Below, piece after piece: positions 34,243-59,448 of a DNA stretch of 64,000 nucleotides (positions within the stretch are counted from its first letter, which is position 1; every line of letters starts with the position of its first letter). Source of the DNA: a virus (taxonomy: Duplodnaviria; Heunggongvirae; Uroviricota; Caudoviricetes). The notes beneath the pieces were generated by a model. That model was not told the DNA's origin, made no database searches, and was given only the letters and a program-made list of their open reading frames with translations. The stretch spans positions 26,672 through 90,671 of IMG/VR virus record IMGVR_UViG_3300021168_000019. One strand, given 5' to 3'. The position numbers and the translations under genes were made by a program.

Positions 34243-34647
34243 ATGGGTTACTACACTAACTACACGCTCACACAGGTAAAGAATTCTATCCCTGATAGTT
34301 GGTTCGCCGGTTATATCAAGGCGCACAAAGATGACATGTACGGCGTAGATGAAGATGGTGATACTACTGATGCCTGCAAATGGTATGAGCACGATGTTGC
34401 TATGCAAGCCTTCAGTAAGGCTTTTCCTACAACTGTTTTCAAACTGCACGGTGAGGGAGAGGAAAGCGGTGACCTATGGGAGAAGTATTACTACGGAGGT
34501 AAACTTCTTTTCAACGCTACAGTAAAGATGACCTTTGACCAACCTGACCTTAGTACGATTCCACGTGTCACCATTGAAGAGGCTCCCGTAACTCTTAAGG
34601 CAGAACCTCCTGAAGTAACTGGTAGAAAGTTTAAGAAAGGTTTGTAA
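34243..34647 (+). CDS. hypothetical protein with C-terminal TGRKFK tail
   Basis: start at Met 14 of track ORF (avoids tRNA overlap); ends ...PEVTGRKFKKGL. Confidence 0.45.
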   Translation: MGYYTNYTLTQVKNSIPDSWFAGYIKAHKDDMYGVDEDGDTTDACKWYEHDVAMQAFSKAFPTTVFKLHGEGEESGDLWEKYYYGGKLLFNATVKMTFDQPDLSTIPRVTIEEAPVTLKAEPPEVTGRKFKKGL

Positions 34648-35276
34648 TGAGTATCTTTTTCACAGCAGATGAGCATCACGGTCACGAGAACATCATCCGT
34701 TTCTGTAAGCGTCCTTTTAGTGGCATCGAAGAGATGACAGAGAAGCTTGTCACTAACCATAACGAAGTAGTCAAGCCGGGGGACCATGTATTCCATCTCG
34801 GAGATATGTTCTGGAGAACCTTTGGGCTGGACCCGGCGCTAAAGCTGATGGCCCGTTTGAACGGAAGACACTTCTACATTTATGGCAACCATTGTGAACT
34901 ATTCCGACACAAGGAACTGCGCGATTGTTTTGAATGGTGCAAGGACGTGGATAACTTGAAGGTTCAAGGCTATCCTAATATCTGGCTATCACATTATGCC
35001 CATCGGGTATGGAACGGCTCACACCGAGGCGCGTACCATGTGTACGGTCATACTCATAATGTTCTCCCCGAGGGCGATTACCTTTCGACTGATGTAGGAG
35101 TTGACGCCCAAAATTTTTACCCAATTAGCCTTGAAGATTTAGATAAGAAGCTTAAGGCGCGGAAGGGAAGATTCGACGGCGGTCAGTGGGTTTGTGAGTG
35201 TGGTAACAAATTCTTAGCAACCAATACTTCACCTACAGTTTGCGCGAAGTGTACAAAGGAGATGAGATTAGTATGA
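34647..35276 (+). CDS. calcineurin-like metallophosphoesterase (Ser/Thr phosphatase-like) with C-terminal zinc ribbon
   Basis: motifs ADEHHGH, HLGDMF, YGNHC, GHTH; CECGNKF...CAKC. Confidence 0.65.
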   Translation: MSIFFTADEHHGHENIIRFCKRPFSGIEEMTEKLVTNHNEVVKPGDHVFHLGDMFWRTFGLDPALKLMARLNGRHFYIYGNHCELFRHKELRDCFEWCKDVDNLKVQGYPNIWLSHYAHRVWNGSHRGAYHVYGHTHNVLPEGDYLSTDVGVDAQNFYPISLEDLDKKLKARKGRFDGGQWVCECGNKFLATNTSPTVCAKCTKEMRLV

Positions 35277-35602
35277 ACGCACCAAAGATGCCAGTAACGG
35301 AACCAAAGCCTAAAAACCCTAACAGTCTGTTCCTTACAGCGCAAGAGGCGAGGGATATTCTTTACAGCGAGAATGAAGCGTTTGAAGTTGAAGTAGATGA
35401 AATCATTAGCACCGGAAGATGGTCAGTCCATCATAGGTTAGTTGTCTACAACCTTCAAACATCTAAGTACTATATGTGTACTTATTCTAAAGGCGCAACC
35501 GAGAACCAAGACGAGCAACCTTGGGAATATGATAAAGAAGTAGAGTTTGTGCAAGTGGAACCTTATGCGACAACCATCATCAAGTATCAGATAAAGCTAT
35601 GA
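35273..35602 (+). CDS. hypothetical protein
   Basis: ORF, start at Met after GAGATGAG. Confidence 0.3.
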   Translation: MNAPKMPVTEPKPKNPNSLFLTAQEARDILYSENEAFEVEVDEIISTGRWSVHHRLVVYNLQTSKYYMCTYSKGATENQDEQPWEYDKEVEFVQVEPYATTIIKYQIKL

Positions 35603-35796
35603 GCGAAGCACTGGCGCACGTAGTTGACGCATACGGGGATTACATGGCGACCATTAAGGTTCCTATCGTGTTTGACGGGCCGACGCCAGATGTCCCCCGC
35701 CTAGTCGAATGTAACGGTTGGTTTGCGTACTTGCACGAAACTAACCCATTGACTTATAGCTGGATTGAACCGCCTACAAAAGTGGAGAAGATATGA
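35599..35796 (+). CDS. hypothetical small protein
   Basis: 65 aa, ATGA overlap. Confidence 0.3.
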   Translation: MSEALAHVVDAYGDYMATIKVPIVFDGPTPDVPRLVECNGWFAYLHETNPLTYSWIEPPTKVEKI

Positions 35797-36014
35797 CATA
35801 CGAAGGTACGCCGATTCAAGCAAAGATTTTCTGGGGACCGTCGATAACCGACCCCGTGCATTTAATCGACATTGCGCTGCCAGATGGCGCAGCAATGACT
35901 GGAACTAGATGGCAGAGATTTCTTATCAAGCTTTTAGCGAAGTCTATTCTAAAGAGACGTAAGAAAGCTATGAAGAATCTAGGCGATAAATACAACAAAG
36001 TAGTTATAGGATAA
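35793..36014 (+). CDS. hypothetical small protein
   Basis: 73 aa. Confidence 0.3.
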   Translation: MTYEGTPIQAKIFWGPSITDPVHLIDIALPDGAAMTGTRWQRFLIKLLAKSILKRRKKAMKNLGDKYNKVVIG

Positions 36015-36016
36015 AC

Positions 36017-36682
36017 ATGAAGATTGTAGCCCTATCAGACACCCACGGACAGCACCGAGACGTTACCGTTCCTGACGGTGACGTTCTTATGTTTGCAGGC
36101 GACCTGATGGGTTCTGGATACAAGCATTCTGAGGTAAAGGATTTTGCAGAGTGGTTCTCGAATCAGCCACACAAGTACAAAATTCTGGTAGCAGGTAATC
36201 ATGACCGGATGTTTGAAACTAACCTAGACTACTGTCTGTCAAAGTTTTCCAATGTTGTCTACCTTCAGGATAGCGGGACTGAAATCAATGGTGTAAAGTT
36301 CTGGGGCAGTCCGTGGCAACCTTGGTTTTACAACTGGGCATTTAATGTCCCGAGAGGACCAGAGATAGCAAAGTATTGGGCGAAAATCCCCGGAGATACG
36401 GACGTATTGATTACGCACGGGCCTCCTTATGGCATTCTAGACCAAGCTATTCCTGATGAAGTTAGGGGAGAGTGGAGCAGTGATATCATCGTCCATCCGT
36501 CTGAGCATCTCGGCTGTGAGGAACTGGGCAAACAGTTTGGTAGGATTATGCCAAAAGTTCACATCTTCGGACATATTCATGGCAGCTACGGAACTTACAA
36601 TGATGGGATTAGATTCTACAATGTATCCATCTGTGACGAGCAGTACAACCCTGTAAACCCGGTGACGGTAATCGAGGTATAA
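36017..36682 (+). CDS. calcineurin-like metallophosphoesterase
   Basis: motifs LSDTHGQH, FAGDLMG, VAGNHD, ITHGPP, GHIHGSYG. Confidence 0.65.
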   Translation: MKIVALSDTHGQHRDVTVPDGDVLMFAGDLMGSGYKHSEVKDFAEWFSNQPHKYKILVAGNHDRMFETNLDYCLSKFSNVVYLQDSGTEINGVKFWGSPWQPWFYNWAFNVPRGPEIAKYWAKIPGDTDVLITHGPPYGILDQAIPDEVRGEWSSDIIVHPSEHLGCEELGKQFGRIMPKVHIFGHIHGSYGTYNDGIRFYNVSICDEQYNPVNPVTVIEV

Positions 36683-36939
36683 TGGTAACAACTACACAAC
36701 ACGTTCTTAAGAATATTGCTCGTATGTCTAACTTCAACGTTGACATTCAGTGTAAGGTTACCCTTGGTATTAACTGCTACCGTGCTATCTGTACTGCTTG
36801 TAATGATAGTATACCTATCAGCCAAGATGTTTCCCTTAGAAGTGAGTTTGATGATAACTTCATAAAGTTCTGTAAAGAACATAGGCACGATATAGAAGCA
36901 AGAGTGGTAGAGGAAGTTACGGGGCGAAAGTTCAGATGA
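36682..36939 (+). CDS. small Cys-rich protein with C-terminal TGRKF tail
   Basis: CKVTLGINCYRAICTACND; ends EEVTGRKFR. Confidence 0.45.
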   Translation: MVTTTQHVLKNIARMSNFNVDIQCKVTLGINCYRAICTACNDSIPISQDVSLRSEFDDNFIKFCKEHRHDIEARVVEEVTGRKFR

Positions 36940-37733
36940 ATGTCAGTAATGCTGAAAGGGATAAAATTCGAGCACGCATACAAATGTTACTAGGTGGCGT
37001 GGAGTATCCTCACGGCATTATGGCTATGGAGATTAGTTATATTGCCGGATTGAGCGGTTCTTACCAAGACCTAGCTATCTATCAGGCGGCTTTGGGACAG
37101 TTAATCGCTAAGGGAGCCGATCCGATACTGCAAGACTTATTAAAAAAGCAGATTCAAGAGATGGCCGCAAAGCTTCAGCAGGAAGAAGTAGAGGCTGTCA
37201 ACGCTAATAAAGCTTGGGCCGACAAGTATGGGGACTTGCATTATGTTCAGAAGAATGGTAAGGTAAAGGCAGTATGGGAAGAAGACAAACCGGTCCCGTT
37301 GCCCGAACCTGAGTGTAAACTGTGCGTCGATGGTAAGATTAGCTCAACTCTTAGTAAACATTCAGGAGCATGGTATCCCTGTGAATGTCCCTTGGGGGAT
37401 AAGTGGGCGAAGAATACGGGGTATATGGGACCGCCCGTTGGACAGGTAACAAAAGCAGGCGCACAGCAGACAGTAGGAAAGTATTACGGTAAGAAGTTTG
37501 TAGAAGATTTGAAAAAGAATACTCAGAATTTTGCAGTATCTACTACCACTACTACTCAGAATATTGCCGCTTATGAACAATACACGGGAACTTTTACTGT
37601 ACCAATAGAGGCTGCAATTAACGAAGTAAAAATGAAATGGAAAGACGCGCCCACGCAGACTACATGGAAACCAGAAGTTTTGGTTAAGGAAGTAGAAGAA
37701 CCAACTGGCAGGAAGTTTAAGGAGAAACTATGA
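36936..37733 (+). CDS. hypothetical protein with C-terminal TGRKFKEKL tail
   Basis: 265 aa; ends EEPTGRKFKEKL; ATGA overlaps. Confidence 0.45.
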   Translation: MNVSNAERDKIRARIQMLLGGVEYPHGIMAMEISYIAGLSGSYQDLAIYQAALGQLIAKGADPILQDLLKKQIQEMAAKLQQEEVEAVNANKAWADKYGDLHYVQKNGKVKAVWEEDKPVPLPEPECKLCVDGKISSTLSKHSGAWYPCECPLGDKWAKNTGYMGPPVGQVTKAGAQQTVGKYYGKKFVEDLKKNTQNFAVSTTTTTQNIAAYEQYTGTFTVPIEAAINEVKMKWKDAPTQTTWKPEVLVKEVEEPTGRKFKEKL

Positions 37734-38467
37734 GACGGACTAAACCGGTATCTCATCCAATGTTTCAAGCCAAACAAAAAGAACTTAAGGAGAAGGAAAT
37801 GCTTAACGAAAAGAAGAGACTAGAACCGCCCACGGAATACACACTTGAAAGTCATCCAACGAATAGCCTGAACATCAACCCCAGTGTAGTGACGGACACG
37901 AAGGACTGGACTAAACTTTGGAAGAAGTCTGAGTTAGTTTCTAACCCACCGACTGGGCATTACTATACTACCGGGGTTCCGTATGTCCCCCCAGTCCACC
38001 AACCCTTTACCCTGACGTGGAATGGTCAGCATTATGTCCCTGACTTCGTGCCTGCTGATATCCGAGTGACTGCCTACCACGCCAAGGATTACATGGAACT
38101 TAAAAAAGCTTTTAGGGAACTTCAGACGAAGGCCGATATGTCAACCTCATTAACCCAAGCTTTGGACGGAACTATCAAGTACCTACGGCAACTTAACCTA
38201 GACATTTATGACCGTGTGGACTACCTCCATGAGAAACTGGATGCATATAAGCATGTGTGGTCAGCTAGGGAATACCTTAAGGTAGTAGAACCGGACAACA
38301 CGGAAGCATACAGGCTCCTTACTGACACAATGTTAAATATTAGATGGGAGGCACAAGACTGGCCGATGATTAAAGAGAGGTACGCGCGTATTAATATGAA
38401 GGGTATTGATTTGTCTGTACGTGGAAAAAGCGACCACGAGGATTCACCAGAGGAACATTCCATATAG
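37730..38467 (+). CDS. hypothetical protein
   Basis: 245 aa. Confidence 0.4.
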   Translation: MRRTKPVSHPMFQAKQKELKEKEMLNEKKRLEPPTEYTLESHPTNSLNINPSVVTDTKDWTKLWKKSELVSNPPTGHYYTTGVPYVPPVHQPFTLTWNGQHYVPDFVPADIRVTAYHAKDYMELKKAFRELQTKADMSTSLTQALDGTIKYLRQLNLDIYDRVDYLHEKLDAYKHVWSAREYLKVVEPDNTEAYRLLTDTMLNIRWEAQDWPMIKERYARINMKGIDLSVRGKSDHEDSPEEHSI

Positions 38468-38487
38468 CCATTAACCTATTTGGCTTA

Positions 38488-38518
38488 GCCTCCTGCTACG
38501 GCGGGGGGCTTTTCTGTT
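38488..38518 (+). terminator. candidate rho-independent terminator
   Basis: GCCTCC-loop-GGGGGC hairpin followed by CTTTTCTGTT. Confidence 0.45.
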
Positions 38519-38586
38519 ATACAAACATATAACCTCCTTAACAACTTCCCTGACACTACCTATTCTGTACGTCCCTCTGAAAACAA

Positions 38587-38637
38587 TAGGGTCCCCTTTA
38601 TGTCCTTAAGCCTATTAGGTTTAGGGTCCCCTTTTCT
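38587..38637. repeat. direct repeat TAGGGTCCCCTTT x2 in 700-nt non-coding region
   Basis: 38587-38601 and 38622-38637. Confidence 0.6.
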
Positions 38638-39087
38638 ATACGTGTTGGCCGGGTCCGTGTCCAACGCGCCACGCGCTATACGGGAATCCCCCCGGCCACC
38701 CCGGAAGAGAGGGTTGGTTTGGTCATAGTACTGATCCTAAAAGACTTACAGCAACTAATCTATTGTGGGCAAGAATCTTGACAATACTTCTATCAGATTC
38801 CCTGTTAGCCTGTAATCGTGTTTGTCCCTAACTGCCTGATAATAGGAGGGTTACCCTCCGGTATACACAATACACGCTAATGTTGAATTTCTCCTAAGCT
38901 GCTTAGGTGTACTTGAACGATCATTCAACTATCAGCCTAGCTAATCGAATGCTGACAGCAAACTACAGCGTATCCTATACGTAAGGTAAATCACTTTACT
39001 AGTCTATAGGGTTAATCTTTAGGCTATTATTAGCTCATGTTCGGGCCACTTAGAAGTGTTGTATCAGTTCATGGGTGAAAGTTGAAA

Positions 39088-39104
39088 GGGTATTACCAAA
39101 GTGA
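39088..39104 (+). promoter_or_regulatory. conserved element AAAGTGATGTTGTATTC (copy 1) embedded in promoter-like sequence
   Basis: identical 17-mer at 44919-44935; TTGTAT-N18-TATTCT downstream; ~55 nt upstream of ATG 39160. Confidence 0.45.
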
Positions 39105-39159
39105 TGTTGTATTCACTGGCCGAATTAACGTATTCTGTACATGCAATCAAGGAGAGTAT

Positions 39160-39393: not shown

Positions 39394-39504
39394 ACACAAC
39401 GGGCCGGTATCCACTCCGGCCCAAACCTAGGAAAAAACTATGCTCTCTATTCTGATTGCATTTCCACTCATTGTCCTAACAGGATACGCATTCGGGGGCA
39501 GGCG

Positions 39505-40791: not shown

Positions 40792-42327
40792 ATGGGTTTT
40801 ATCGATCAGTTTAAAGCAGCGCATCGGGTTTCTACTCCGCTGCTCTCAATCCGCACATTCGACGCGAAAAGCACGATTGACCGCATCAAGGGTATTTGGA
40901 CGAATGCTAACAAGGAATTGCCCCCGGTTATGTACTGGGATTGCATCAAAGGGTTTACGGTATCGGCCAAAGATGAAAAGAGCAAAACCGTTCTAACCGA
41001 TGCTATGCAAAAGTCTAGCAGTATGCCTGAGTTAACGGCATCACTGAAAGAAACCCTCCGGGTATGCAACTTTCTAGCAGAGGATTGCATAATCTTTGTG
41101 TCGAATGCTCACATGCAATTGGATGGCCCTGATAGGGTTGAAATCATCCAAGCTATTTGGAACTTGCGCGACTATTTCAAGGCAAAAGGTTGCATGCTGC
41201 TCTTGATGACTTCCAACGGGGCAATAATGCCCGTAGAACTTGCGTCCGATGTGCTTACCCTTGACGAACCATTGCCAACGAAAGCTGAACTGGCCGTAAT
41301 CGTATCTGATACGTTTAAGAATGGCAAAGCGGAAAAGAATCTGACCGATGCTATTACAGCCGATGCTACCAAAGCGTTAATCGGGTTGCCAGCATTTCCA
41401 GCGGAGCAAGCAACTGCTATGTGTCTGGAGAATGGCAAGCTTGACATGTCCGGGTTGTGGGAGCGTAAACGGCAGGCTATCAATGCTACGCGGGGATTGC
41501 AAGTATTACAGACGGATGCGAACCTTGACAACATCGGCGGATTGGAACAATTCAAAACGTTTTTAGAGCAAGTGATGACGGGCAATAACCCCCCGAACGT
41601 TATTCTATTGTGGGATGAAATCGAAAAGAGTTTCGCGGGGATGGGAACAGACACGTCCGGGACAACTACCAAAATGGGGGGCAATGTTCTTTCATGGTCA
41701 AATGATACCGGTATGGCGGGAATCATCGGCGTAGGTGTACCGGGGGCAGGAAAGAGTGAAGTAGTCAAGGCAGTTGCGAACAAGTACGGAAAGCTTTGCA
41801 TCGCGTTCAATCTGGCCGATATGGAAAGCGGACTAGTAGGCAGTTCGAACGAATATTTGCGCAACGCTCAGGCAGTCATTGATTCGATATCGGATAAAAA
41901 GGTTCTATCAATCGCAACGTGCAATAGCATCGAATCCCTGCCCCCGGAGATTAAGCGTAGATTCGCAAACAAAGGTATATTCTTCTTTGATGCACCTACG
42001 GAAGTAGAACGCGCGTCCATTTGGGATGTCTACCGTAATAAGTATTCCATCCCCGCATCGGACCCTACACCGAACGATAAGGGTTGGACTGGAGCGGAAA
42101 TCCGCAATTGCGCTTTGAACGCATACGAACTGAAAATTACGCTCAGGCAGGCTGCAAATTACATTGTACCGGTTACCGTTTCCGATGCTGGCAAAATTGC
42201 AACGTTGCGTAATGCTTGCTCGGGGAAGTACTTGTCAGCATCACATCCCGGAGTCTACCAGTACATGGGGGAAGAAACGGAAACCCCATCTATCCCTGAA
42301 ACGGTAACCGGGCGAAAGATGCGGTAA
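40792..42327 (+). CDS. AAA+-like ATPase with C-terminal TGRKMR tail
   Basis: start MGFIDQF after AGGAGGG; ILLWDEIEKS (Walker B-like), GVPGAGKSE (P-loop), SIATCN...RRF sensor/Arg-finger-like; ends ETVTGRKMR. Confidence 0.45.
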   Translation: MGFIDQFKAAHRVSTPLLSIRTFDAKSTIDRIKGIWTNANKELPPVMYWDCIKGFTVSAKDEKSKTVLTDAMQKSSSMPELTASLKETLRVCNFLAEDCIIFVSNAHMQLDGPDRVEIIQAIWNLRDYFKAKGCMLLLMTSNGAIMPVELASDVLTLDEPLPTKAELAVIVSDTFKNGKAEKNLTDAITADATKALIGLPAFPAEQATAMCLENGKLDMSGLWERKRQAINATRGLQVLQTDANLDNIGGLEQFKTFLEQVMTGNNPPNVILLWDEIEKSFAGMGTDTSGTTTKMGGNVLSWSNDTGMAGIIGVGVPGAGKSEVVKAVANKYGKLCIAFNLADMESGLVGSSNEYLRNAQAVIDSISDKKVLSIATCNSIESLPPEIKRRFANKGIFFFDAPTEVERASIWDVYRNKYSIPASDPTPNDKGWTGAEIRNCALNAYELKITLRQAANYIVPVTVSDAGKIATLRNACSGKYLSASHPGVYQYMGEETETPSIPETVTGRKMR

Positions 42328-42398: not shown

Positions 42399-42839
42399 AT
42401 GAGCGAATACAGTACGAATAAGACGATTTTCAAGGATGCAAGCTTGCTTGTAGCTGCATTGGTTGAAATGGGGTTTCCGCTTGAGGAAATCGAACAGAAC
42501 ACCGATGCAAAGCAACTTCTTGACTATCACGGCAGAGCAACCCATTACACCGATGCAGCGGGGGATAAAGCAGAAATCGTAATCCGTCGTCAATCAGTTA
42601 ACCGTCATCTCTCTAGTGGCGCATCGAACGATATCGGTTTCAAACGTCAACCCGATGGGACCTACGCGGGGATTATTTCAGCGTATGACTCCAACTTCGC
42701 TAACACTGCTTGGATGGGAAGATTGACCGCTGCATACACTCGCAAAGCAATCATCCAGAAAGCAACTAAGCAAGGTTTGCGCGTGCTCGGGTCCGTCAAG
42801 GTTAATGGTAAGACGCAATTCCAAATCGCAAAAGCTTAG
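42399..42839 (+). CDS. hypothetical protein (DUF1257-like from memory)
   Basis: 146 aa. Confidence 0.3.
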   Translation: MSEYSTNKTIFKDASLLVAALVEMGFPLEEIEQNTDAKQLLDYHGRATHYTDAAGDKAEIVIRRQSVNRHLSSGASNDIGFKRQPDGTYAGIISAYDSNFANTAWMGRLTAAYTRKAIIQKATKQGLRVLGSVKVNGKTQFQIAKA

Positions 42840-42847: not shown

Positions 42848-43039
42848 ATGCAAGTTATCAAGATTTCAGTAGATGACAATACCGGGGAATTCGATGTTGA
42901 TTTAACCGGATTCCACGGGCAGGGATGCGCAGCAATCATAGACGCATTCGGCGAATTAGGGGAAATCACATCCCGGACACATAAACCCGAATACCGCGAA
43001 AAGACGGTTACACAAAGAGTAGTCAAAGCGGGGGCATAA
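42848..43039 (+). CDS. small protein (DUF2997-like from memory)
   Basis: 63 aa; SVDDNTGEFDVDL...GQGCAAII...EYREK. Confidence 0.3.
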   Translation: MQVIKISVDDNTGEFDVDLTGFHGQGCAAIIDAFGELGEITSRTHKPEYREKTVTQRVVKAGA

Positions 43040-43377
43040 TGGAAAACGCTAACCGGTTTACAGTCAGTATCGATGACACAACGGGGGAGTATCAATTCCT
43101 CTTGTCTAATCTTTCTGCCTGCCTGCTAGATGAGACAAGCAACGTTAGACGGGCAAGTCATGTAGAACCTGTAAACCGGTTAGCACGTCTATGCTTCTAT
43201 CTTGCCCGTAGAACGTTCGGAGATACGGGCAGGGTTGCAAACCTTACTCGGAGATATCCGGGACTCTGGAGAGTCAATCTTGCCCCGATAGATGGCCCTG
43301 TATTACCGGGGGTGTATTCGATACGCTCGGAAGCGATACAGGCAGAGGTATCCTATCTAGAGGAAAACTTCCTATAA
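43039..43377 (+). CDS. hypothetical protein, N-terminus paralogous to 42848..43039
   Basis: SIDDTTGEYQFLLSNLSAC aligns with SVDDNTGEFDVDLTGFHGQGC. Confidence 0.35.
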   Translation: MENANRFTVSIDDTTGEYQFLLSNLSACLLDETSNVRRASHVEPVNRLARLCFYLARRTFGDTGRVANLTRRYPGLWRVNLAPIDGPVLPGVYSIRSEAIQAEVSYLEENFL

Positions 43378-43450: not shown

Positions 43451-44371
43451 ATGGCAAACAACCAAAGCATTACAGAGAATGCGGTATTCTTTCGGGTCAA
43501 CTTTGGCCTAATGGGGAATTCTACGCAAGTATCTAACAGGGAAGTACTGAAAACGGATGCTAACACAAAGTTGCTTAAGATTCAAAAGACGCTGCTCGAA
43601 TCCCCCGAACTTGAAGCAATCAAAACGGCGGATGGCAAGCTAAGAGCAAGGGTTGCAAAGCTTTGCCTGCCCTACGTTGACATGGGGATTATGCTTGCCC
43701 TGAATTCTGACTTGCCCGAACTGGAAAGCATCCTGAAAGATTATCAAGAGACGCGCAACGGACTGGTAGATACTTACGTCTCATTCTATCCCCAACGGGT
43801 TGAGGAAGCGAAAGTCAAGACTCAAGAACTAGCAGCGGAGTTAAACATTCCGTTCGATGTGCTTTGGAATAGCGCTTCTTACCCGGATGTGTTTAACGTT
43901 CGGAAGAAGTTTCGCTTTGACTGGCAATATTTGTCTTTTATGACTCCTGAGAGTCTCAAGCTTCAGGGCATGTACGAACAAGAGCAAGCCAAAGCAGCGG
44001 AAAAGATGTCTCAAGCAGCGGATGAGATTACGCTTTTGATGCGCTCAACACTGGCCGAACTGGTAAACCATCTGAAGGAGTCACTTGAGCCTAATGCGGA
44101 TGGGAAGCCAAAGCGCTTGTTTGCATCGGCTGTCACCAACATCCAAGACTTTGTGAAGTCATTCCCCACCCGGAACATCACGAACGATACCGAACTAGAC
44201 AAACTAATTGCAGAGATTAGTACACTTATCACCCCGGAGTTACACGTTGATACCATCAAGAAGGATGAGTCATTCAAGGCTAGCATCCTTGCGGGGGTTT
44301 CTGCATTCGGTCAATCCCTAAACGCATTGGTTGAGGAAGTACCGGGCAGGAAGTTTAAAGAAGCGCTTTAA
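43451..44371 (+). CDS. hypothetical protein with C-terminal PGRKFKEAL tail
   Basis: 306 aa; ends EEVPGRKFKEAL. Confidence 0.45.
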   Translation: MANNQSITENAVFFRVNFGLMGNSTQVSNREVLKTDANTKLLKIQKTLLESPELEAIKTADGKLRARVAKLCLPYVDMGIMLALNSDLPELESILKDYQETRNGLVDTYVSFYPQRVEEAKVKTQELAAELNIPFDVLWNSASYPDVFNVRKKFRFDWQYLSFMTPESLKLQGMYEQEQAKAAEKMSQAADEITLLMRSTLAELVNHLKESLEPNADGKPKRLFASAVTNIQDFVKSFPTRNITNDTELDKLIAEISTLITPELHVDTIKKDESFKASILAGVSAFGQSLNALVEEVPGRKFKEAL

Positions 44372-52381: not shown

Positions 52382-53527
52382 GTGGGTCAAGGGGGTGGGA
52401 AACTGCCCCCCATTTTTAAGGAAGAAATGGACAACGAGTTAGATCAGTTTATAAAGAAGTTCGGAAAGTTTACTGAGAGCTATTGGTTTTATGATAAGAC
52501 CATTGAGTTAAGGTATGACCCAAAGGATCACGTATACCTGTTAGTTACCCCTGACGGCCTAGAAGTTCAAGATGGCGTGACGACGATCTGCCACATCATG
52601 GACAAGAGCAACATCCTCATTCCGTGGGGGTGTAAAATGATGGGGCAGAAGCTTAAAGCTAGTCTTGAGCCGCATCTTGAACCTGATAGAGTAAATGGTA
52701 CTAGTAATGAATACATCATTTATGAGAGTGACTTTGACGAACTGCTAAGACTATCAAAGTCTGCCCACAAAGATAAGCTAGAAGACGCCGGAGAGGTAGG
52801 ACACAAGGCGCACGATTGGATCGAAACGCACATTAAGAGTTGCATCGCTCATAAAGATGACGATACAACTTACGCTATAGATGTTCCAAGAGGAGACGAG
52901 CGGGTAACAAACTGTACCGTTGCATCCCTTCACTGGATGGCGAACCACAACGTTAGGTGGCTTGGTACTGAGCGTAAAGTATACAGTAGAACGTTTAAAT
53001 ATGCTGGTACTATGGATGGACTGGCGTTCGTTGACTCATGTAACGATCCGAAGTGTTGCCGACAGCCGTTCAAGGATCACCTAGCTATCATTGACTGGAA
53101 GACTAGTAACTACCTGTACGTGGAATACCTGCTACAAACCGCCGCATACAAGCAAGCTTACCAAGAGGAAACTGGTGGAAGTATTGAGGACATCTTCATT
53201 ATCAGACTTGGTAAAGAAGATGGAGAGTTTGAGGCTTGGCACGTAGAGCAAGATTTATCTGAAGCCGCATGGAGCGCTTTTGTACGGGCGTTAGAATTAA
53301 GCCGATCAATGGTTGAAGTCAACCGATTAGTAGACGAAGCCAAGGACGAACGTAAAGCGATCAAGAAAGCTGAAAAGAAAGCGGAGAAAGAAGCACAGCT
53401 AGCAATCAAATGTGCATACGCTGATAAGTACAAGGGAGTGCGTTCTCCTACTTGTAACAACGGGAAACCATGTGTTTCCTGTTTAAATAAATACCAAGAA
53501 GTTCAACTTGGTAAGGAAACAAAGTGA
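52382..53527 (+). CDS. PD-(D/E)XK nuclease (RecB/Cas4-like exonuclease)
   Basis: GLAFVD, IIDWKTS (D/ExK), QTAAYKQAY (QxxxY), Cys cluster CNDPKCC. Confidence 0.55.
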   Translation: MGQGGGKLPPIFKEEMDNELDQFIKKFGKFTESYWFYDKTIELRYDPKDHVYLLVTPDGLEVQDGVTTICHIMDKSNILIPWGCKMMGQKLKASLEPHLEPDRVNGTSNEYIIYESDFDELLRLSKSAHKDKLEDAGEVGHKAHDWIETHIKSCIAHKDDDTTYAIDVPRGDERVTNCTVASLHWMANHNVRWLGTERKVYSRTFKYAGTMDGLAFVDSCNDPKCCRQPFKDHLAIIDWKTSNYLYVEYLLQTAAYKQAYQEETGGSIEDIFIIRLGKEDGEFEAWHVEQDLSEAAWSAFVRALELSRSMVEVNRLVDEAKDERKAIKKAEKKAEKEAQLAIKCAYADKYKGVRSPTCNNGKPCVSCLNKYQEVQLGKETK

Positions 53528-54075
53528 AAATTGATTTAATTGGTTGTAAATTTGGAAGATTTGTGGTACAATATGAGGTAGAAAGGGCTAATAAGCACAG
53601 AAGATGGCATTGTCTCTGTGAATGCGGGACTGAAAAAGATGTATTACAGAGCAGTCTCATTACCGGACGAACACAAAGCTGCGGATGTTTAGGAGCAGAG
53701 AGAAGCCGCAAAAGGATGCAACTAAGGCACGATAGTGGTCAGTCAAGGAAGGTAAATTCTGGCCGCAATGATTTTCTTCGAAGCTATAAGCAGAATGCTA
53801 AAGTTAGAAATTTGAACTTCGATTTAACAGATTCTCAATTTGATGTTCTAATTACTGGGAATTGTGTTTACTGCGGTGAGCCACCTTCGGAACGTATAGC
53901 AAGTAACAATGTTATAATTGTAAATGGAATTGACAGATTGAATTCTACTAAAGGTTATACAACTGATAATTGTGCATCATGTTGTAAGTATTGTAATCTC
54001 ATGAAGTTAGAGATGAGTCCCAAAGAATTCGTGGATCACTGCACAAAAGTATATAGGAGACAGAGCATAGTATGA
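53524..54075 (+). CDS. HNH endonuclease
   Basis: 183 aa; CVYCGEPP...NGIDRLNSTKGYTTDNCASCCKYCN. Confidence 0.6.
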   Translation: MKIDLIGCKFGRFVVQYEVERANKHRRWHCLCECGTEKDVLQSSLITGRTQSCGCLGAERSRKRMQLRHDSGQSRKVNSGRNDFLRSYKQNAKVRNLNFDLTDSQFDVLITGNCVYCGEPPSERIASNNVIIVNGIDRLNSTKGYTTDNCASCCKYCNLMKLEMSPKEFVDHCTKVYRRQSIV

Positions 54076-54926
54076 GCACAGCACTTACAGTATTAAACAA
54101 CAACTCGATTCAAGAGGGTGGACTTGGGATCGATTTTAGCAGCAAGTTTCTACAAGCTAAACCGGCTAACCTCATCATCGTGCAGCCAAATAACCAAACC
54201 GAAGGAGCCATTAAGGGTAACCTACGTATCAATGAGACGGGCGATCAGTACGAGGAAATGTGGGCCACGTTCCTAGCTCTGCCCACTGAGCAGCGCCAGT
54301 ATCACATCGGTGACCCCGGCGAACTAAACCGCACTCCTGAAAACCTGATGTGCTTCAGTAGTGATATGGTACAGCCACACGCTAAGGCACGTCAACCACA
54401 AGCTATCAACTGCGCGAACTGCCCCCGACAGGACTGGGGTCCGTGGCGTGAGTACAAGGAGAAGAATGACGGCAGAACGAGCAAGGCCCTTATTCCCCCT
54501 TGTGACGCGCATTACAGGGCATTGCTGATTGACGACAAGTACAAGCTACCCTTGAGTATGTACCTCCGCTCTAAGGCTAAGGAGCCGTTTGAGCAGGGCA
54601 TGGAGAACTTCACCCGCGTTCTGCTAAAGGCTCAGGCAGAAGGACATCGGCCAAATATCTTTGACATCAAGTTCCGTATCCGTACCAAGCTTGTAGTTCA
54701 AGGAAAGTTTCAATTCTATGTACCAGTTTTTGACAGTTTCAAGTTTATCGAGCCGGAAGAAAGAGAGCAATTTGGTGCAGTCTATTTGAACTATGTTGCA
54801 TCTAAACAGAGGAAGGAACAAGATGCCGCTGTAGCCGCCGCTGAGGCCGAAGTCTCTACCTCACAGGCGTCAGTTGACAATTCGGTCACAGAGGGTGAAT
54901 ATGTAGATGGGGACATCATAATCTAG
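54072..54926 (+). CDS. hypothetical protein (possible recombination partner of upstream exonuclease)
   Basis: 284 aa; CANCPRQDW...CDAHY; position only. Confidence 0.3.
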   Translation: MSTALTVLNNNSIQEGGLGIDFSSKFLQAKPANLIIVQPNNQTEGAIKGNLRINETGDQYEEMWATFLALPTEQRQYHIGDPGELNRTPENLMCFSSDMVQPHAKARQPQAINCANCPRQDWGPWREYKEKNDGRTSKALIPPCDAHYRALLIDDKYKLPLSMYLRSKAKEPFEQGMENFTRVLLKAQAEGHRPNIFDIKFRIRTKLVVQGKFQFYVPVFDSFKFIEPEEREQFGAVYLNYVASKQRKEQDAAVAAAEAEVSTSQASVDNSVTEGEYVDGDIII

Positions 54927-54934
54927 GAGGAAAC

Positions 54935-55198
54935 ATGGCAAAGACGACTAAGACGATGAAGACGGCCACGGGAGTTAGACTTTTCGTGGCAGAACCGGAA
55001 ACCGATAGGACTTGGAAAATTGCTCTTGAACAGGATTCCGAGGGCGTAACAGTGAAAGCCGTTAGTAGCGGTGACAACTGGTATCTCTTGAAGCTGAAGA
55101 ACGATGGTACACTTTACCGTCATACCTATATCGATAAGGAATCTGGATTCAACCTTGACTCACAAGGACGTATTACTGAATCGGAAGAGGAGTATTGA
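54935..55198 (+). CDS. hypothetical small protein
   Basis: 87 aa; GGAGGAAAC RBS. Confidence 0.35.
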   Translation: MAKTTKTMKTATGVRLFVAEPETDRTWKIALEQDSEGVTVKAVSSGDNWYLLKLKNDGTLYRHTYIDKESGFNLDSQGRITESEEEY

Positions 55199-55572
55199 TG
55201 CACACACTACTGCTTGGACTCGTACTGGCTATCGGCATGGGGGATAAGGTTCCCCCGGCACCAACCGTCACTGTTGTACCCACCACCTTTTCTACTGCAT
55301 ACTTTGAAGAAGTTGACAAGGCCAACACAATCTTCGATAAGTATATGAAAACTAGTTGCAGGGATGCCGGTTACGCCGAGGTTGACAGCGCCATGAAAAA
55401 CGAGTATTATACTCTTAAGGGCATGGCAAAGACGATTCAGACGAACGAGCCGGATGAAATTAAGCAGGACCATGAGTTTGAAACGTTTGTGGGATTGCAG
55501 GTTCTTCTGAAGTCCTCAGTTGATGACCATCAAAAGTGTGAAGCAGAACTGGAACATAGTCCTACTACATAG
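55195..55572 (+). CDS. hypothetical protein with N-terminal hydrophobic segment
   Basis: 125 aa. Confidence 0.3.
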   Translation: MMHTLLLGLVLAIGMGDKVPPAPTVTVVPTTFSTAYFEEVDKANTIFDKYMKTSCRDAGYAEVDSAMKNEYYTLKGMAKTIQTNEPDEIKQDHEFETFVGLQVLLKSSVDDHQKCEAELEHSPTT

Positions 55573-55580
55573 GAGATACG

Positions 55581-56597
55581 ATGAAATTGTCAGAGTACAT
55601 CGATACCGCGAAGTTACAGCGACATGTTAGCAATGGGCTAGTAACTGCTCGTAGGCACAATACCCTCCCCCTGACTATTTACTGCTACGGCAAGACGGCA
55701 GTCTTTAATCGCGTTTGGGATGATGTGACTACTAAGACTCGTGGATTAATTGTCGATGACTCTGGCGAAATCATTGCCCGTCCTTATGAGAAGTTCTTTT
55801 CTATCGACCAACTGCCGACTCTTGTAGATGTACATGAGATTGATACTCAGTTTGGACCGCCAGTTATCACCGAGAAGGTTAACGGATGTCTTGGAATCTT
55901 CTGGAAGTATGGAATCCATTGGGGCATTGCATCCAAAGGTTCGTTCCATTCACCGCACGCAGAGTTTGCTACGAAGTGGATGGAGCAGCATATTGAAGAG
56001 CATGGGCCGCTTGTATTTCCTGAAGGTTACACGCCAGTCTTTGAAATAGTTTGCCAAGAAGTACAGCCTCATGTTATCAAGTACGCGAAAGATGGCTTAG
56101 TTCTGCTGTCGTTTGTGAAGGTTGAAACTGGCGAAGAGGGTGACCGGGCTGAGGTTGTAAACTACTACGGTAATCTTAACAGTTTGGACAGAGCTTTTAG
56201 CTTTAATGGTACGCTAGACGAAGCTTTGAGTATGGACCGTGAGCATTATGAGGGACTGGTTGCAACGTATAACATCCCCGGACAGGCACCGTTCAAGTTG
56301 AAGATTAAGTTTCCTACATTCCTTAAGAACCGCAAGGCATTCTACGAGGAGCAGCGTTTGAAGGGCAATGACGGCGGCAAGGAAGCGTACAACCGCATTC
56401 ATAGTAAGGCCGCTGAGATAGTCAAGGAAGCACTGATAGTCTGTACCGAGCAAAAGGAATTCGCAATGTTCTTTCAGAAGCCGGAGAACGTATTCTATGC
56501 GCCAGCCTGCTTCGCTATGTTGAACTACGACGAAGACAAAGAGCGCCAGAAGAGAGCAATCTGGCGACTGGTCGATAAGGAGAAGAATGCCAGTTAA
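55581..56597 (+). CDS. Rnl1-family (T4 RNA ligase 1-like) RNA ligase
   Basis: TRGLIVDDSGEIIARPYEKFFSIDQ matches Rnl1 RGIMFE..GE.PVRIASRPMEKFFNLNE from memory; motif I ITEKVNG (KxNG). Confidence 0.55.
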   Translation: MKLSEYIDTAKLQRHVSNGLVTARRHNTLPLTIYCYGKTAVFNRVWDDVTTKTRGLIVDDSGEIIARPYEKFFSIDQLPTLVDVHEIDTQFGPPVITEKVNGCLGIFWKYGIHWGIASKGSFHSPHAEFATKWMEQHIEEHGPLVFPEGYTPVFEIVCQEVQPHVIKYAKDGLVLLSFVKVETGEEGDRAEVVNYYGNLNSLDRAFSFNGTLDEALSMDREHYEGLVATYNIPGQAPFKLKIKFPTFLKNRKAFYEEQRLKGNDGGKEAYNRIHSKAAEIVKEALIVCTEQKEFAMFFQKPENVFYAPACFAMLNYDEDKERQKRAIWRLVDKEKNAS

Positions 56598-56790
56598 ATA
56601 TCAAGTAGGTGATGTAGTAATGGTCAGTTCTATAGTCGTTCCTGACTACAGAGAAGCCTGTAAAGTACTCGCCGTAACTGAGAACTTTGAGGCTCTTAAA
56701 CTTCGCACTGTAAAATGGCATTTTCCATTTGGATTTACAACTTTCTGGATGGATAATAACTCTTTCTACATTAAAGGAAAAGTATGCTGA
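56587..56790 (+). CDS. hypothetical small protein
   Basis: 67 aa. Confidence 0.3.
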   Translation: MPVKYQVGDVVMVSSIVVPDYREACKVLAVTENFEALKLRTVKWHFPFGFTTFWMDNNSFYIKGKVC

Positions 56791-57233
56791 CACCGGAAGA
56801 GAAGGAAAAGCGGAAGGCTGACAGGTTAGGGAAGGATTACATCTATCCGTGGATAGGATTCGACCTTGACAAAACCTTGGCAGTCTATGACGAATTCAAA
56901 GGTGAGGACCATATCGGCGCACCTATTCCCAAGACGGTCGAACTTGTTAAACAGTATCTTGCACAAGGAACTATTGTAAAGATATTTACGGCACGGGCGT
57001 CTGAGCCTAATCCGACTAAACTGGTACGAGCGCTGGCGGCTATCGCCAAATGGAGCCAAGAAGTATTTGGTACTTCACTTCCTGTCACTTGCATAAAGGA
57101 CTACGGTTGTGTTAGAATATACGACGACAGGGCTGTACAGATTCAGGAGAACACCGGGGAATTGATGACCGATGTAACTTACATACAGGGATTCCAACAC
57201 GGTCAACTTCACAAGCACATTGAGGAGGTTTAA
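56784..57233 (+). CDS. HAD-superfamily phosphatase (polynucleotide 3'-phosphatase-like)
   Basis: DxDxT motif IGFDLDKTLAV; KIFTARA; 149 aa. Confidence 0.5.
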   Translation: MLTPEEKEKRKADRLGKDYIYPWIGFDLDKTLAVYDEFKGEDHIGAPIPKTVELVKQYLAQGTIVKIFTARASEPNPTKLVRALAAIAKWSQEVFGTSLPVTCIKDYGCVRIYDDRAVQIQENTGELMTDVTYIQGFQHGQLHKHIEEV

Positions 57234-57638
57234 TTGAAGGCATATCTAGCAGCACAGTATGCTCGTAGGGACGAGCTAAGAGAACACAAGGCGGTCCTTG
57301 AACCGCTAGGGATCGAGGTTACTTCGCGCTGGCTTGACGAGCAAGAGCCTCTTAACAGTCAAATGGGAGAGAAGACGGACGATTGGTACGTTGAAACTGC
57401 CACCATCGATCTAGAAGATGTGGACAGGGCCGAGGCGGTAATCTTCTTCAGTGAGAATCCCCGCGTAGGCATTCCGAGGGGCGGCAGGCACGTAGAGTTT
57501 GGCTACGCACTTGGTACTAGTAAACCTATTTATGTAATTGGGCCAAAGGAAAATGTGTTCCATTACATTGACAGAGTGTATCACTTTGAGACGTTGGAAC
57601 AGTTTATTGAATCATATAAGAAGTATTCAGGAGACTAA
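57234..57638 (+). CDS. nucleoside 2-deoxyribosyltransferase-like protein
   Basis: TTG start after GAGGAGG; GRHVEFGYALG; weak call. Confidence 0.3.
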   Translation: MKAYLAAQYARRDELREHKAVLEPLGIEVTSRWLDEQEPLNSQMGEKTDDWYVETATIDLEDVDRAEAVIFFSENPRVGIPRGGRHVEFGYALGTSKPIYVIGPKENVFHYIDRVYHFETLEQFIESYKKYSGD

Positions 57639-58315
57639 TGGAAGTATTTGAGAATGTCCCGGCTATCATCGGACAACAGGTAGCCGGGGAAGCTGCTAAG
57701 GTTAGAAAGGAACTAGAGCAGTTAATTAGTAAAGTAAACACATCGGCTTACGACATCGGAGAACTACTTCATAAGATCAAGAAGAACGGGTACTATGATG
57801 GGTTCGTAACTTTCCAAGAATATGTAAAGACACTTCAGATCAAGCCGAGAAAGGCGCAGTATCTAAGACGGATCGCAGAGGTAATGGACATCATGGAAGT
57901 TCCCCGCGAGAAGTATGAACCGCTAGGGATCGCAAAGCTTAGGGAGATTACCAGTCTAGACGTAAATGGTACTTGGACGAACCCGGACACGCAAGTAGAA
58001 ATCTCACTGAAGACTTTCATTACAGCCTTTATTGAGAAGGGTGAAGAGATGAACCTAGAGGATATCAAGCTTCATGTTCAGACTCTTAAAGGTTTGGCCG
58101 ATGAAGATGCTATGGGATGGGTCAATCTGTACATGAAGAAGATGGCAATCGAACAGGTAGTCCGTCCAGCATTGGACATGGCAAAGATGATGATCGGTTC
58201 AGTAGGCAAGGACGATGAGGGCGTTTCAAAGGATGCATCTGACGGAGCGGCTGCTGAAGTTGTATTCGTTTCGTTCCTTAATGACCCGGCGAACACGGTA
58301 TTAGCAGGAGGATAA
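57638..58315 (+). CDS. hypothetical protein
   Basis: 225 aa. Confidence 0.4.
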   Translation: MEVFENVPAIIGQQVAGEAAKVRKELEQLISKVNTSAYDIGELLHKIKKNGYYDGFVTFQEYVKTLQIKPRKAQYLRRIAEVMDIMEVPREKYEPLGIAKLREITSLDVNGTWTNPDTQVEISLKTFITAFIEKGEEMNLEDIKLHVQTLKGLADEDAMGWVNLYMKKMAIEQVVRPALDMAKMMIGSVGKDDEGVSKDASDGAAAEVVFVSFLNDPANTVLAGG

Positions 58316-58606
58316 ATGGCTCAGGAATTGATTGCAGCGTCTATTGATTATATTGACCCGGCTGATTGTGGCTCGACAGTAGGCTACAAACTGCTTACTA
58401 GTACTACGTACTCGTCTGGGAAGAGTTTACCAAGCTTTTACGGCGAAATTGACCTTACAGATTGTAGTAGAAAGATTTGCTGGCAATTCAATAACAATGA
58501 GCACGCTCTTGAGAAAATCAACCATGCAATCACTATGCTGACAAACTTCAAGAAGGAGTTTGTAAAAGCACAGAAGAAGTATCCTAATAAGGAGAAAGAT
58601 GAATAA
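58316..58606 (+). CDS. hypothetical protein
   Basis: 96 aa. Confidence 0.35.
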   Translation: MAQELIAASIDYIDPADCGSTVGYKLLTSTTYSSGKSLPSFYGEIDLTDCSRKICWQFNNNEHALEKINHAITMLTNFKKEFVKAQKKYPNKEKDE

Positions 58607-58641
58607 GATTATCCTCAATATCCAGTGGTTTTTGGTAAACT

Positions 58642-58902
58642 ATGCTAGCTATCTACCAGCGTTGTTTTACTAGGGATGGGTGGAAGTGCCGCCATTGTAA
58701 TAACCGGAACGGACTTCACCCCCACCACATCGTATATCGTTCGCACCAAGGGGAGGATGCTCTCAACAACCTGATAACTCTCTGTAACTGCTGCCACATT
58801 GAGGGTATTCATGGGGGCCGGTTACTTATGACTGTCCTTGACAAGACCACGGATGACGTGGTAGTATCATTTCAGAGGTTAAAAGGATGGAAACCTTCCT
58901 AA
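58642..58902 (+). CDS. HNH endonuclease (small)
   Basis: CRHCNNRNGLHPHHIVYRSHQGEDALNNLITLCNCCH. Confidence 0.65.
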   Translation: MLAIYQRCFTRDGWKCRHCNNRNGLHPHHIVYRSHQGEDALNNLITLCNCCHIEGIHGGRLLMTVLDKTTDDVVVSFQRLKGWKPS

Positions 58903-58905
58903 CGT

Positions 58906-59448
58906 TTGTATTGGTACTTGGAGCGGTTGGCTATGGATGCACCTACTTGGGCAGAATTCTTGAAATGGCCAGACGCGCCCCGAGTCGTAAATCCAGACCC
59001 GAAGCCATTGACTTTGATTGCCCATCCACAACAGGCAGAAAGTTTAAGCCAAGAATTTAATAAGTTGGGACTTATGACGTGCAACCACTGCCAAGATACG
59101 GGACTAGTTCATGACTCTTATTTTGGCATTACTAGTATGCCGTGCACTTATTGCAATGTATCTAATATCAAATCAAAACCTGTGATGATAAAGAAGGATA
59201 AATGCCAGCACAATGATTGGCGGTCTTTTATAATTGACGGTAATTACAAGATTGAATGCGATAGTTGTGACTATTGGTGGGTAGGAGACGACTGGGATGA
59301 AGTATGGGAATCGTTCAACTCTGGGGAACCCTGTGAGCACATGGAAGATGTGACGCCTACACCGAGCCTGAAGCTTACACAATACATTGGACGTGGAATT
59401 AGAGTCATAGAAGAGCCTAGTGGTCGGAAGTTTAAGGAAGCACTATAA
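58906..59448 (+). CDS. Cys-rich protein with C-terminal SGRKFKEAL tail
   Basis: 180 aa; CNHCQD...CTYCN...CDSCDYWW; ends EEPSGRKFKEAL. Confidence 0.45.
   Translation: MYWYLERLAMDAPTWAEFLKWPDAPRVVNPDPKPLTLIAHPQQAESLSQEFNKLGLMTCNHCQDTGLVHDSYFGITSMPCTYCNVSNIKSKPVMIKKDKCQHNDWRSFIIDGNYKIECDSCDYWWVGDDWDEVWESFNSGEPCEHMEDVTPTPSLKLTQYIGRGIRVIEEPSGRKFKEAL

Follow-up and report, generated by a model that had tools for sequence, protein, structure and literature searches.

A C-terminal peptide shared by unrelated phage proteins is a candidate docking motif of an AAA+ ATPase module

A short C-terminal peptide with the core G-R-K-[F/M]-[K/R] terminates a set of otherwise dissimilar proteins of an uncultured soil phage of approximately 98.6 kb. 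The stretch of this phage that was analysed, referred to as the window, comprises 64,000 nucleotides (IMG/VR record IMGVR_UViG_3300021168_000019, positions 26,672 to 90,671) and contains a structural block on the minus strand, a family A DNA polymerase gene, 13 tRNA genes and, on the plus strand, a long early/replication block. Two of the peptide's bearers belong to a four-gene module that consists of a Cdc48-like tandem AAA+ ATPase together with DUF1257, DUF2997 and DUF3150 proteins. The peptide is conserved at the protein level, lies on disordered chain ends, is portable between unrelated proteins, drifts in concert among the bearers of a lineage and co-occurs with the module. The best explanation, in which we place moderate confidence, is that this tail is a short docking motif on a flexible linker that binds a partner encoded by the module, and that the extra bearers of the phage have been plugged into the same hub.

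A preliminary description of this DNA had pointed to six open reading frames (ORFs) with a common C-terminal peptide, and these ORFs and their ends are confirmed: all six terminate in [T/S/P]-G-R-K-[F/M]-[K/R] followed by zero or three residues. In a six-frame scan of the 64 kb, G-R-K-[FM]-[KR] is found exactly seven times. All seven matches lie on the plus strand, in ORFs of 57 to 534 codons, with the Gly codon 5–8 codons ahead of the stop; the seventh, beyond the six ORFs first listed, is in a 57-residue ORF at 58887..59060. Across 109 non-overlapping ORFs, crudely chosen and totalling 19,383 residues, the motif is never internal, and the chance expectation per genome, obtained by shuffling residues within each protein, is 0.0015 for C-terminal and 0.03 for all occurrences. 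The aligned instances extend the motif further upstream than had been described, to hydrophobic-E-E-[V/P]-[T/P/S] followed by G-R-K-[F/M]-[R/K]; after this core comes either the stop or, most often, three residues with Leu or Ile last. Two examples of 15-residue tails are LVEEVPGRKFKEAL and SIPETVTGRKMR.

The ATPase (carrier A, 40792..42327, plus strand as for all the carriers that follow; Pfam AAA) ends in ...ETVTGRKMR, with the core at 42310..42324, and the DUF3150-family protein (carrier B, 43451..44371) ends in ...EEVPGRKFKEAL (15-residue form ...LVEEVPGRKFKEAL; core at 44345..44359). Carrier C (36682..36939) is a Cys-rich protein of 85 residues that terminates in ...EEVTGRKFR (core at 36922..36936); its orthologues in five related loci (L001, L003, L004, L006 and L007) vary from 85 to 313 residues, and every one is tail-ended. 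Carrier D (36936..37733, 265 residues, ending in ...EEPTGRKFKEKL, core at 37707..37721) comprises a conserved N-terminal domain, a CxxCxDG...PCxC zinc motif, a variable linker and the tail. Carrier E (34243..34647) is a small domain of the PHROG 6306 family with a C-terminal extension of approximately 29 residues, ending in ...PPEVTGRKFKKGL (core at 34621..34635). Carrier G (59074..59448) is again Cys-rich (CNHCQDTG...PCTYC) and ends in ...EEPSGRKFKEAL (core at 59422..59436). Its frame is open from 58906, with possible starts at TTG 58906, ATG 58933 (the call in an identical contig) and ATG 59074; the gene start at 58906 given in the preliminary description is not secure. Carriers D and G share the zinc-finger pattern CxxCxDG/DTG...PCxC, which is kept in homologues of carrier D and in its sequence is reminiscent of the DnaJ zinc finger, CxxCxGxG.

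The 57-residue ORF at 58887..59060 is a candidate carrier (F) with an N-terminal hydrophobic helix, ending in ...PSTTGRKFKPRI (core at 59034..59048). Its frame differs from that of the 58906..59448 ORF, whose 5′ part it overlaps. It is not called as a gene in contig L170, which represents the same phage as the window (99.97% identity), and codon-usage scores favour neither of the overlapping frames. This contig reaches past window position 64000 and encodes a further bearer there (L170 10718..11062, 114 residues), ending in ...QPEATRKFKGEI (...PEATRKFKGEI), with Thr at the Gly position; near L170 14523 lies another candidate, a weaker one, ending in ...RRVGRKVQKGIR. Within the window, a 76-residue ORF amid the tRNA genes (33907..34137, plus strand) ends in ...AIMLGKKF, where Lys replaces the invariant Arg. 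By its sequence this end looks like a truncated, degenerate tail.

The claim that the bearers are otherwise dissimilar is borne out: with their last 14 residues cut off, the window carriers have no mutual BLASTP similarity at E<1e-4 and form separate clusters. The 27 instances of the motif in the window and in seven phages related to it draw on every codon available for Gly (four), Arg (six), Lys (two) and Phe (two), with 21 AAG to 6 AAA for Lys, in line with the 68% AAG of the whole genome. The codon variation described earlier for the window thus holds across eight genomes. Because synonymous codons vary freely, including switches of Arg between AGR and CGN, the sequences argue, as had been proposed, that selection acts on the peptide and not on a DNA repeat. 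One alternative is that the motif is a by-product of a nucleotide element (terminator, promoter, recombination site or translational coupling) or a domain inherited by paralogues. In its favour, the motif stands at the ends of genes, several of which overlap the next start codon. Against it, the distance from a tailed ORF to the next gene ranges from overlap to approximately 600 nucleotides, the peptide is kept in orthologues whose DNA is unalignable, and the carriers lack sequence similarity outside the tail. We regard this alternative as barely credible; an origin of the motif at the DNA level, an outcome that the preliminary description had set against its own proposal, is ruled out by the codon data as far as sequence analysis goes.

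In four related loci (L001, L003, L004 and L005), with ATPases 57–78% identical to that of the window, 4–7 ORFs each within 10 kb of the ATPase end in (T/S/P)GRKF[RK] plus 0–4 residues, and in three more distant ones (L006, L007 and L008) the tail takes the form GR-x-hydrophobic-[RK] followed by acidic residues. Clustering assigns the recurrent bearers to orthologous families, namely the ATPase, a downstream protein of approximately 300–370 residues, a Cys-rich protein, a protein of approximately 250–280 residues and a small protein, besides which there are many single, lineage-specific bearers. The tail is kept in orthologues down to approximately 35–40% identity. In family D, GR[KR]F[RK] followed by 0–9 residues is present in 20 of 20 homologues (about 30–96% identity, 164–360 residues), and the linker ahead of it is hypervariable, with a few dozen to approximately 200 residues of unrelated low-complexity sequence. 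Family E is a widespread domain of approximately 105 residues, 120 homologues of which end in ...FDEFDESKLK; the extension of approximately 29 residues with the tail is found only in the window protein and its closest relative (P0202), and is missing in the orthologue of another related phage. In phage contigs of approximately 90–100 kb, up to six bearers lie within 10 kb of the ATPase, against usually just two, the ATPase and the DUF3150 protein, in integrated acidobacterial modules. In the lineage of the window, no fewer than five additional protein families have gained the tail.

The ATPase was modelled with AlphaFold2 from an alignment of 98 sequences, with a predicted local distance difference test (pLDDT) score of 93.6. 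The model comprises two AAA-like domains, and its last approximately 22 residues have pLDDT values of only 51–65. The first domain is degenerate and without a P-loop. The Walker A sequence GVPGAGKS is present in the second domain only, with G315, G318 and K321 invariant in the loop formed by residues 310–322. The top 50 Foldseek matches in the PDB are Cdc48, p97, Rix7 and NVL structures (E down to 1e-13, with TM scores of only 0.3–0.5). On the basis of its two modelled domains, the protein is predicted to be a tandem (type II) classical-clade AAA+ ATPase of the Cdc48/p97/NVL kind. No N-terminal cofactor domain (double-psi barrel) is present in the model, in which the chain opens with the first AAA-like domain. 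An invariant acidic pair, D275–E276 (VILLWDEIEK), which is Walker-B-like, lies N-terminal to Walker A. In canonical AAA domains, the Walker B acidic pair comes after Walker A; judged from its sequence, the core may be a permuted or otherwise unusual AAA fold.

Among the 120 best homologues of the ATPase (44–100% identity), 81 have G[RK][RK]-hydrophobic within the last 22 residues, and variants that can still be recognised, for example GRVVRFDEE and KRVFREMTA, are found in most of the remainder. In the form of R-x-hydrophobic-x variants, the tail is present on the ATPase in nearly all of 169 loci collected around this gene. The DUF3150 protein, too, has it almost everywhere, followed by a short extension. 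An AAA ATPase had been counted among the bearers from the outset. This holds, but the protein has a special place among them, since only it and DUF3150 are ancestral bearers.

The window DUF3150 protein was likewise modelled with high confidence (pLDDT 93.4), as a small β-sheet and a long helical bundle, with pLDDT dropping to approximately 50 over its last 12 or so residues. In both AlphaFold2 models, the tail is a free end that is not docked in cis. A comparison of the DUF3150 model with solved structures identified no informative relative, and its match to a viral DUF3150 protein in Foldseek has E=1e-12 and a TM score of 0.69. The window protein itself has no Pfam match; its homologues have precomputed matches to PF11348, the orthologue in locus L013 scoring 23 bits against a cut-off of 24.9, and we assign it to the DUF3150 family. 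P-[G/S]-R-K-[F/I]-[R/K] is found near the C-terminus of most of 80 homologues, and canonical DUF3150 proteins of 290 residues terminate in RPRRKIVMD.

The other two components of the module, both constant companions of the ATPase and both without a tail, are a DUF1257 protein (42399..42839, plus strand; Pfam PF06868, E=5e-8) and a DUF2997 protein (42848..43039, plus strand; Pfam PF11211), the latter with an acidic N-terminal half and an invariant G..C; either is a candidate receptor of the tail. Between DUF2997 and DUF3150, a 112-residue protein is encoded at 43039..43377. The complete module is present, in varying gene order, in 150 of the 169 phage and Acidobacteriota loci, most of the others being cut by contig ends. 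This count takes in divergent DUF1257-like (for example, 'MPC...') and DUF2997-like variants, for which hhalign gives probabilities of 74.9% and 95.7%, respectively, against the Pfam families, versus 0.2% for a negative control. DUF1257 proteins are net basic (median charge +4) and DUF2997 proteins only mildly acidic. Against PDB sequences, a DUF1257 profile built from 32 proteins hits the trigger factor of Thermotoga maritima in its C-terminal chaperone domain (E=8e-4 over 112 columns); this hit is marginal and is treated as unproven because no other trigger factor in the PDB was matched. The DUF2997 profile has no match among PDB sequences. As a third bearer of the tail, DUF2997 was rejected: its C-terminus is basic, but the motif is inconsistent. 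An apparent fusion of the ATPase with DUF1257 in locus L073 was also discarded, as an artefact of an out-of-frame ORF in GC-rich DNA. In PADLOC, the ATPase has only generic AAA similarity to IetA (E=6e-6 to 6e-15) and the other three proteins have no match; NCBIfam holds no names for the module proteins, and a literature search returned nothing on the function of DUF3150, DUF1257 or DUF2997 or on the peptide strings.

The module occurs at several hundred places, 361 in phage contigs and 533 in bacterial genome assemblies. The latter were obtained by scanning one genome per bacterial species for ATPase relatives, the best 80 of which are almost all in metagenome-assembled genomes (MAGs) of Acidobacteriota. 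Some relatives lie on megabase contigs, and some assemblies have several copies; at least four module copies per assembled genome were found in one Acidobacteriota MAG (L013, L016, L020 and L027) and in one Bryobacteraceae MAG (L025, L039, L059 and L066). In an acidobacterial chromosome, the module is accompanied by a primase of the archaeo-eukaryotic type (AEP), a recombination directionality factor, a single-strand-binding protein (SSB) and a radical SAM protein. These occurrences make it a common cargo of integrated elements in Acidobacteriota. Two distant modules (L089 and L090), with RadC, SNF2 helicase and restriction-modification genes as neighbours, have the ATPase ending KKVRRIRE and the DUF3150 ending RPRRKIVMD. 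In L089, a RadC (JAB-family) gene comes after DUF3150. In the tails of distant modules, the Arg is invariant and position +2 is hydrophobic; +4 is often hydrophobic too, and acidic residues follow (RAISFEDE, RTISVED). By this sequence comparison, the tail is ancestral to the ATPase and DUF3150 and older than the divergence of all sampled elements.

The constancy of the module also bears on a different role for the peptide, that of a substrate tag that the phage ATPase threads directly into its pore. On this view the enzyme would act on DUF3150 and the extra carriers as substrates, unfolding or disassembling them, and its own tail, which is systematically slightly different (M/V/I for F, and no extension), would serve as an autoinhibitory pseudo-substrate. 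The resemblance of the enzyme to unfoldases of the Cdc48/p97 type and the unstructured ends that pore engagement requires are in keeping with such a role. However, pore engagement rarely needs a specific sequence of 5–10 residues that co-varies with the tail of the enzyme itself, the constant presence of two small tail-less proteins would go unexplained, and no protease partner is identified by Pfam in the window. We judge the tag to be rather improbable.

Within a genome, the tails of unrelated proteins resemble each other in flavour. In locus L126, five proteins carry GRKIR and the ATPase carries GRKVR, L095 has RKFR[DN]E on five non-ATPase carriers and GRKMRD on the ATPase, all three bearers in L100 have Lys at the last basic position, and the three tails in L143 (GRAIK..., GRKIR... 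and GRAIR...) are all of the I type with a basic extension. Similarity of tails across families is 0.381 within a genome versus 0.238 between genomes, a value reached in 0 of 2000 permutations in which tails were shuffled among genomes within each family. The same holds for the two ancestral bearers, which are paired at single loci as RKMQV with RKMNL, RKFN with RKFDL, and RKIRVKG... with RAIRLRKK.... Identity between the ATPase and DUF3150 tails at positions +1 to +4 is 0.282 at the same locus and 0.176 for shuffled pairings, with 0 of 5000 shuffles reaching the observed value. These comparisons show that unrelated proteins follow one lineage-specific drift of the tail, as a common binding site predicts.

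Concerted evolution would follow naturally if the tails paired with each other, as an antiparallel β-zipper through which the proteins co-assemble without a separate receptor. The alternation of basic and hydrophobic residues with acidic flanks (EE..GRKF.., RKFRFDEE) gives the pattern R-x-hydrophobic-x-hydrophobic-acidic the periodicity of a β-strand and makes it self-complementary in charge. The ATPase tail of the window lineage, however, stops after its fifth residue (GRKMR) and is without the acidic half, and nothing that was computed supports pairing, which we therefore hold to be very unlikely.

A conserved hub of the host, such as the ClpX N-domain (with the tail as adaptor tether or degron), the β-clamp, SSB or RNA polymerase, would be another common binding site; the phage ATPase and its companions would then either be handed to a host machine or take it over. 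In favour of this, the carriers are encoded in the early region, and the basic-hydrophobic residues near the C-terminus resemble C-motif 2 of ClpX substrates and the XB peptide (PMC3983244); some ATPase tails read GRVVRFDEE. A β-clamp gene lies two genes downstream of DUF3150 in L006, the only one of the relatives examined for a clamp gene that has one, and Pfam identifies none in the window. The tail does not qualify as a clamp motif, its agreement with C-motif 2 is loose, and in many cases 3 to more than 15 residues come after it. It also differs among the phages of one host phylum and among module copies in one host genome: in the Bryobacteraceae MAG, the four copies (L025, L039, L059 and L066) differ in flavour, with RKFRF versus RKLRL on the DUF3150 protein. 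Such differences within one MAG are easier to reconcile with a receptor encoded by the element than with a host protein, and a host hub seems to us unlikely.

The phage itself has no close relative among GenBank phages, the only megablast matches being tRNA genes. Tunturiibacter phage Tunturi_3, a 97.6-kb podovirus of Acidobacteriota (PMC11924767), is the only cultured phage with a homologue of the window ATPase (42% identity), and its tails are degenerate (GRIIR, VRKIRLDNE and DRKFHLEGEEF); gp103 (the ATPase), gp96 (DUF3150) and gp131 are tailed proteins of this phage. Neither the ATPase nor a C-terminal motif is mentioned in the paper that describes it (PMC11924767). Because the best ATPase relatives are almost all in Acidobacteriota MAGs, the host of the window phage is probably an acidobacterium, and the lineage of phages of approximately 90–100 kb to which it belongs probably infects Acidobacteriota. 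A tail on proteins of such a phage could also be a signal that targets them into the capsid, or into some other phage compartment, for delivery or sequestration. C-terminal cargo peptides occur in encapsulins, whose shell is HK97-like, and provide a precedent. The one cultured relative is a large podovirus (PMC11924767). Against this, all carriers are encoded in the early/replication block and none in the structural block, the module of both ancestral carriers is also found in integrated elements, and a hexameric ATPase of 511 residues is an unlikely cargo. Capsid targeting thus appears a remote prospect.

Enrichment on unrelated proteins, disorder, selection on the peptide, and retention together with gain are marks of a shared short linear motif that the tail displays; for a further mark, a defined partner, the evidence is indirect, from concerted drift and co-occurrence with the four-gene module. 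The suggestion in the preliminary description that it is a docking peptide for one common partner fits its behaviour (flexible linkers, retention under purifying selection, portability and concerted drift in the sequences compared), but the partners then put forward find no support: neither a clamp, nor a capsid-targeting receptor, nor a proteasome-like protease travels with the motif, and the DNA polymerase, a family A enzyme, is outside the conserved unit. The four-gene module, which does accompany the tail throughout, had gone unrecognised in the preliminary description. A receptor that is itself a component of the module is simplest, because the tail has always travelled with the module. 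We propose that the tail, in the form hydrophobic-E-E-[V/P]-[T/S/P]-G-R-K-[F/M]-[R/K] in the window lineage and more generally as Arg, a hydrophobic residue at +2 and a lineage-specific extension, would dock the ATPase and DUF3150 onto the same site of this partner. The platform would most likely be the DUF1257/DUF2997 pair, since two components of the module bear the tail and two do not; the alternative would be the ring of the ATPase itself. At least five early proteins of the window lineage would be connected to this hub, serving the ATPase as adaptors or regulators or being its substrates. Among these extra bearers are three proteins that are Cys-rich or have zinc fingers, a small domain of wide distribution and, possibly, a peptide anchored in the membrane.

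Several points weigh against docking onto a module-encoded partner. The sequences of DUF1257 and DUF2997 show nothing that marks them as a receptor, and if the ATPase were the receptor, it would be awkward for it to bear the same tail as its presumed clients. The permutations shuffle tails across lineages and are uncorrected for phylogeny, so that they indicate shared lineage-specific flavours and not strict co-evolution. The loci, finally, span approximately 10 kb on each side of the ATPase, with ORFs called mechanically and crudely.

Further features of the window were recorded alongside the tails. Rfam detects a permuted (two-piece) tmRNA at 29344..29587 (plus strand; 74 bits, gathering score 47, E=2.5e-12), and ARAGORN places one, likewise permuted, at 29314..29758. 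By these calls, the phage appears to have a tmRNA gene of its own adjoining its tRNA cluster. A stand-alone Prok-JAB/JAMM metalloprotease of 138 residues, with the motif HSHPEWDAVMSPDD, is encoded at 21581..21994 (minus strand). Pfam identifies three Endonuclease VII-type and two HNH-type genes scattered over the window (for example, 32970..33425, 53524..54075 and 58642..58902); the ORF at 58642..58902, HNH-like by sequence, is left as a gap in the gene calls of contig L170, though the DNA is there. A 284-residue protein without a family match (54072..54926, plus strand) has an acidic C-terminal tail, ...TEGEYVDGDIII, and its counterpart in Tunturi_3, gp75, ends in ...DAEYVDTEITL. This end resembles the acidic tips at the C-termini of single-strand-binding proteins, and the phage may thus have another docking tail besides the one described here.

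Taken further, the docking of tails onto the module would describe a self-contained, uncharacterised protein-remodelling hub in phages and integrated elements, chiefly of Acidobacteriota, in which the ATPase might act with DUF1257/DUF2997 as receptors or adaptors and DUF3150 as a cofactor, wired by a portable R-x-hydrophobic-R/K tag. In one lytic phage lineage, the tag would have become an address label on new zinc-finger and membrane proteins that recruit chosen host or phage targets to the unfoldase in early infection. We offer this picture tentatively, as a possibility of limited likelihood. The identity of the receptor and any remodelling by the ATPase are, like the binding itself, inferred. 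The motif ties three domains of unknown function to an unusual AAA+ ATPase. The tail provides a ready-made bait for the receptor and predicts which uncharacterised early proteins cooperate, and its flavours are natural specificity variants. An unfoldase hub with interchangeable adaptors would represent a new mode of host takeover or anti-defence and, as a compact and portable way of tagging proteins, might be useful for engineering.

Shared docking peptides organise cellular hubs such as sliding clamps, proteasomes, p97 and ClpX. Terminal docking motifs of this kind are a known principle; as far as we can tell, the present motif, its module and its expansion in a phage lineage are undescribed. 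Sliding-clamp motifs (QL[SD]LF or QxxLxF in bacteria) are comparable in that several unrelated proteins, in the 'toolbelt' model, carry one short, often C-terminal peptide for a single multivalent hub. In T4, gp43, gp33 and gp55 bind gp45 through C-terminal tails, to our knowledge the only well-described phage example. The sequences are unrelated, however: no tail contains Gln or a Leu-x-Phe pattern, and the tail described here travels with the AAA module and not with replication genes.

HbYX motifs, with hydrophobic-Tyr-X in the final three positions, and GQYL motifs at the C-termini of PAN, Rpt and Cdc48, and of the mycobacterial Mpa and the non-ATPase Bpa, dock proteasome activators. As in the phage, an AAA+ unfoldase and an unrelated helical non-ATPase share a flexible C-terminal motif, which in the proteasomal systems docks on one ring. 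In contrast to HbYX, the motif here need not be at the extreme C-terminus and is followed by variable extensions; no tail has Tyr at the corresponding position, and Pfam identifies no proteasome-, HslV- or ClpP-like gene in the window. The MIT domain of Vps4 binds the C-terminal MIM motifs of ESCRT-III, and the C-terminal tail of p97 binds PUB/PUL cofactors. These systems also link a classical-clade AAA+ ATPase to short terminal peptides, and p97 itself has a flexible docking tail at its C-terminus. In the phage ATPase, by contrast, the N-terminal half is a degenerate AAA domain and not an MIT domain or double-psi barrel, and its co-carriers, unlike ESCRT-III subunits, are not paralogues of each other.

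The XB peptide of SspB (RGGRPALRVVK-COOH) and C-motif 2 of ClpX substrates (R/H-x-K/R-K-hydrophobic) (PMC3983244) offer a further parallel. In the SspB and MuA-type systems, a short basic-hydrophobic peptide on a flexible end brings diverse proteins to one AAA+ unfoldase. The phage tails, R-K-hydrophobic-[RK], are basic-basic-hydrophobic but out of register with C-motif 2. Their consensus is G-R-K-F-R/K, no protease partner is seen, and the ATPase itself bears the motif and is a tandem classical-clade enzyme without a zinc-binding N-domain. If the remodelling hub sketched above exists, it would be a viral counterpart of the p97–cofactor or ClpX–adaptor networks.

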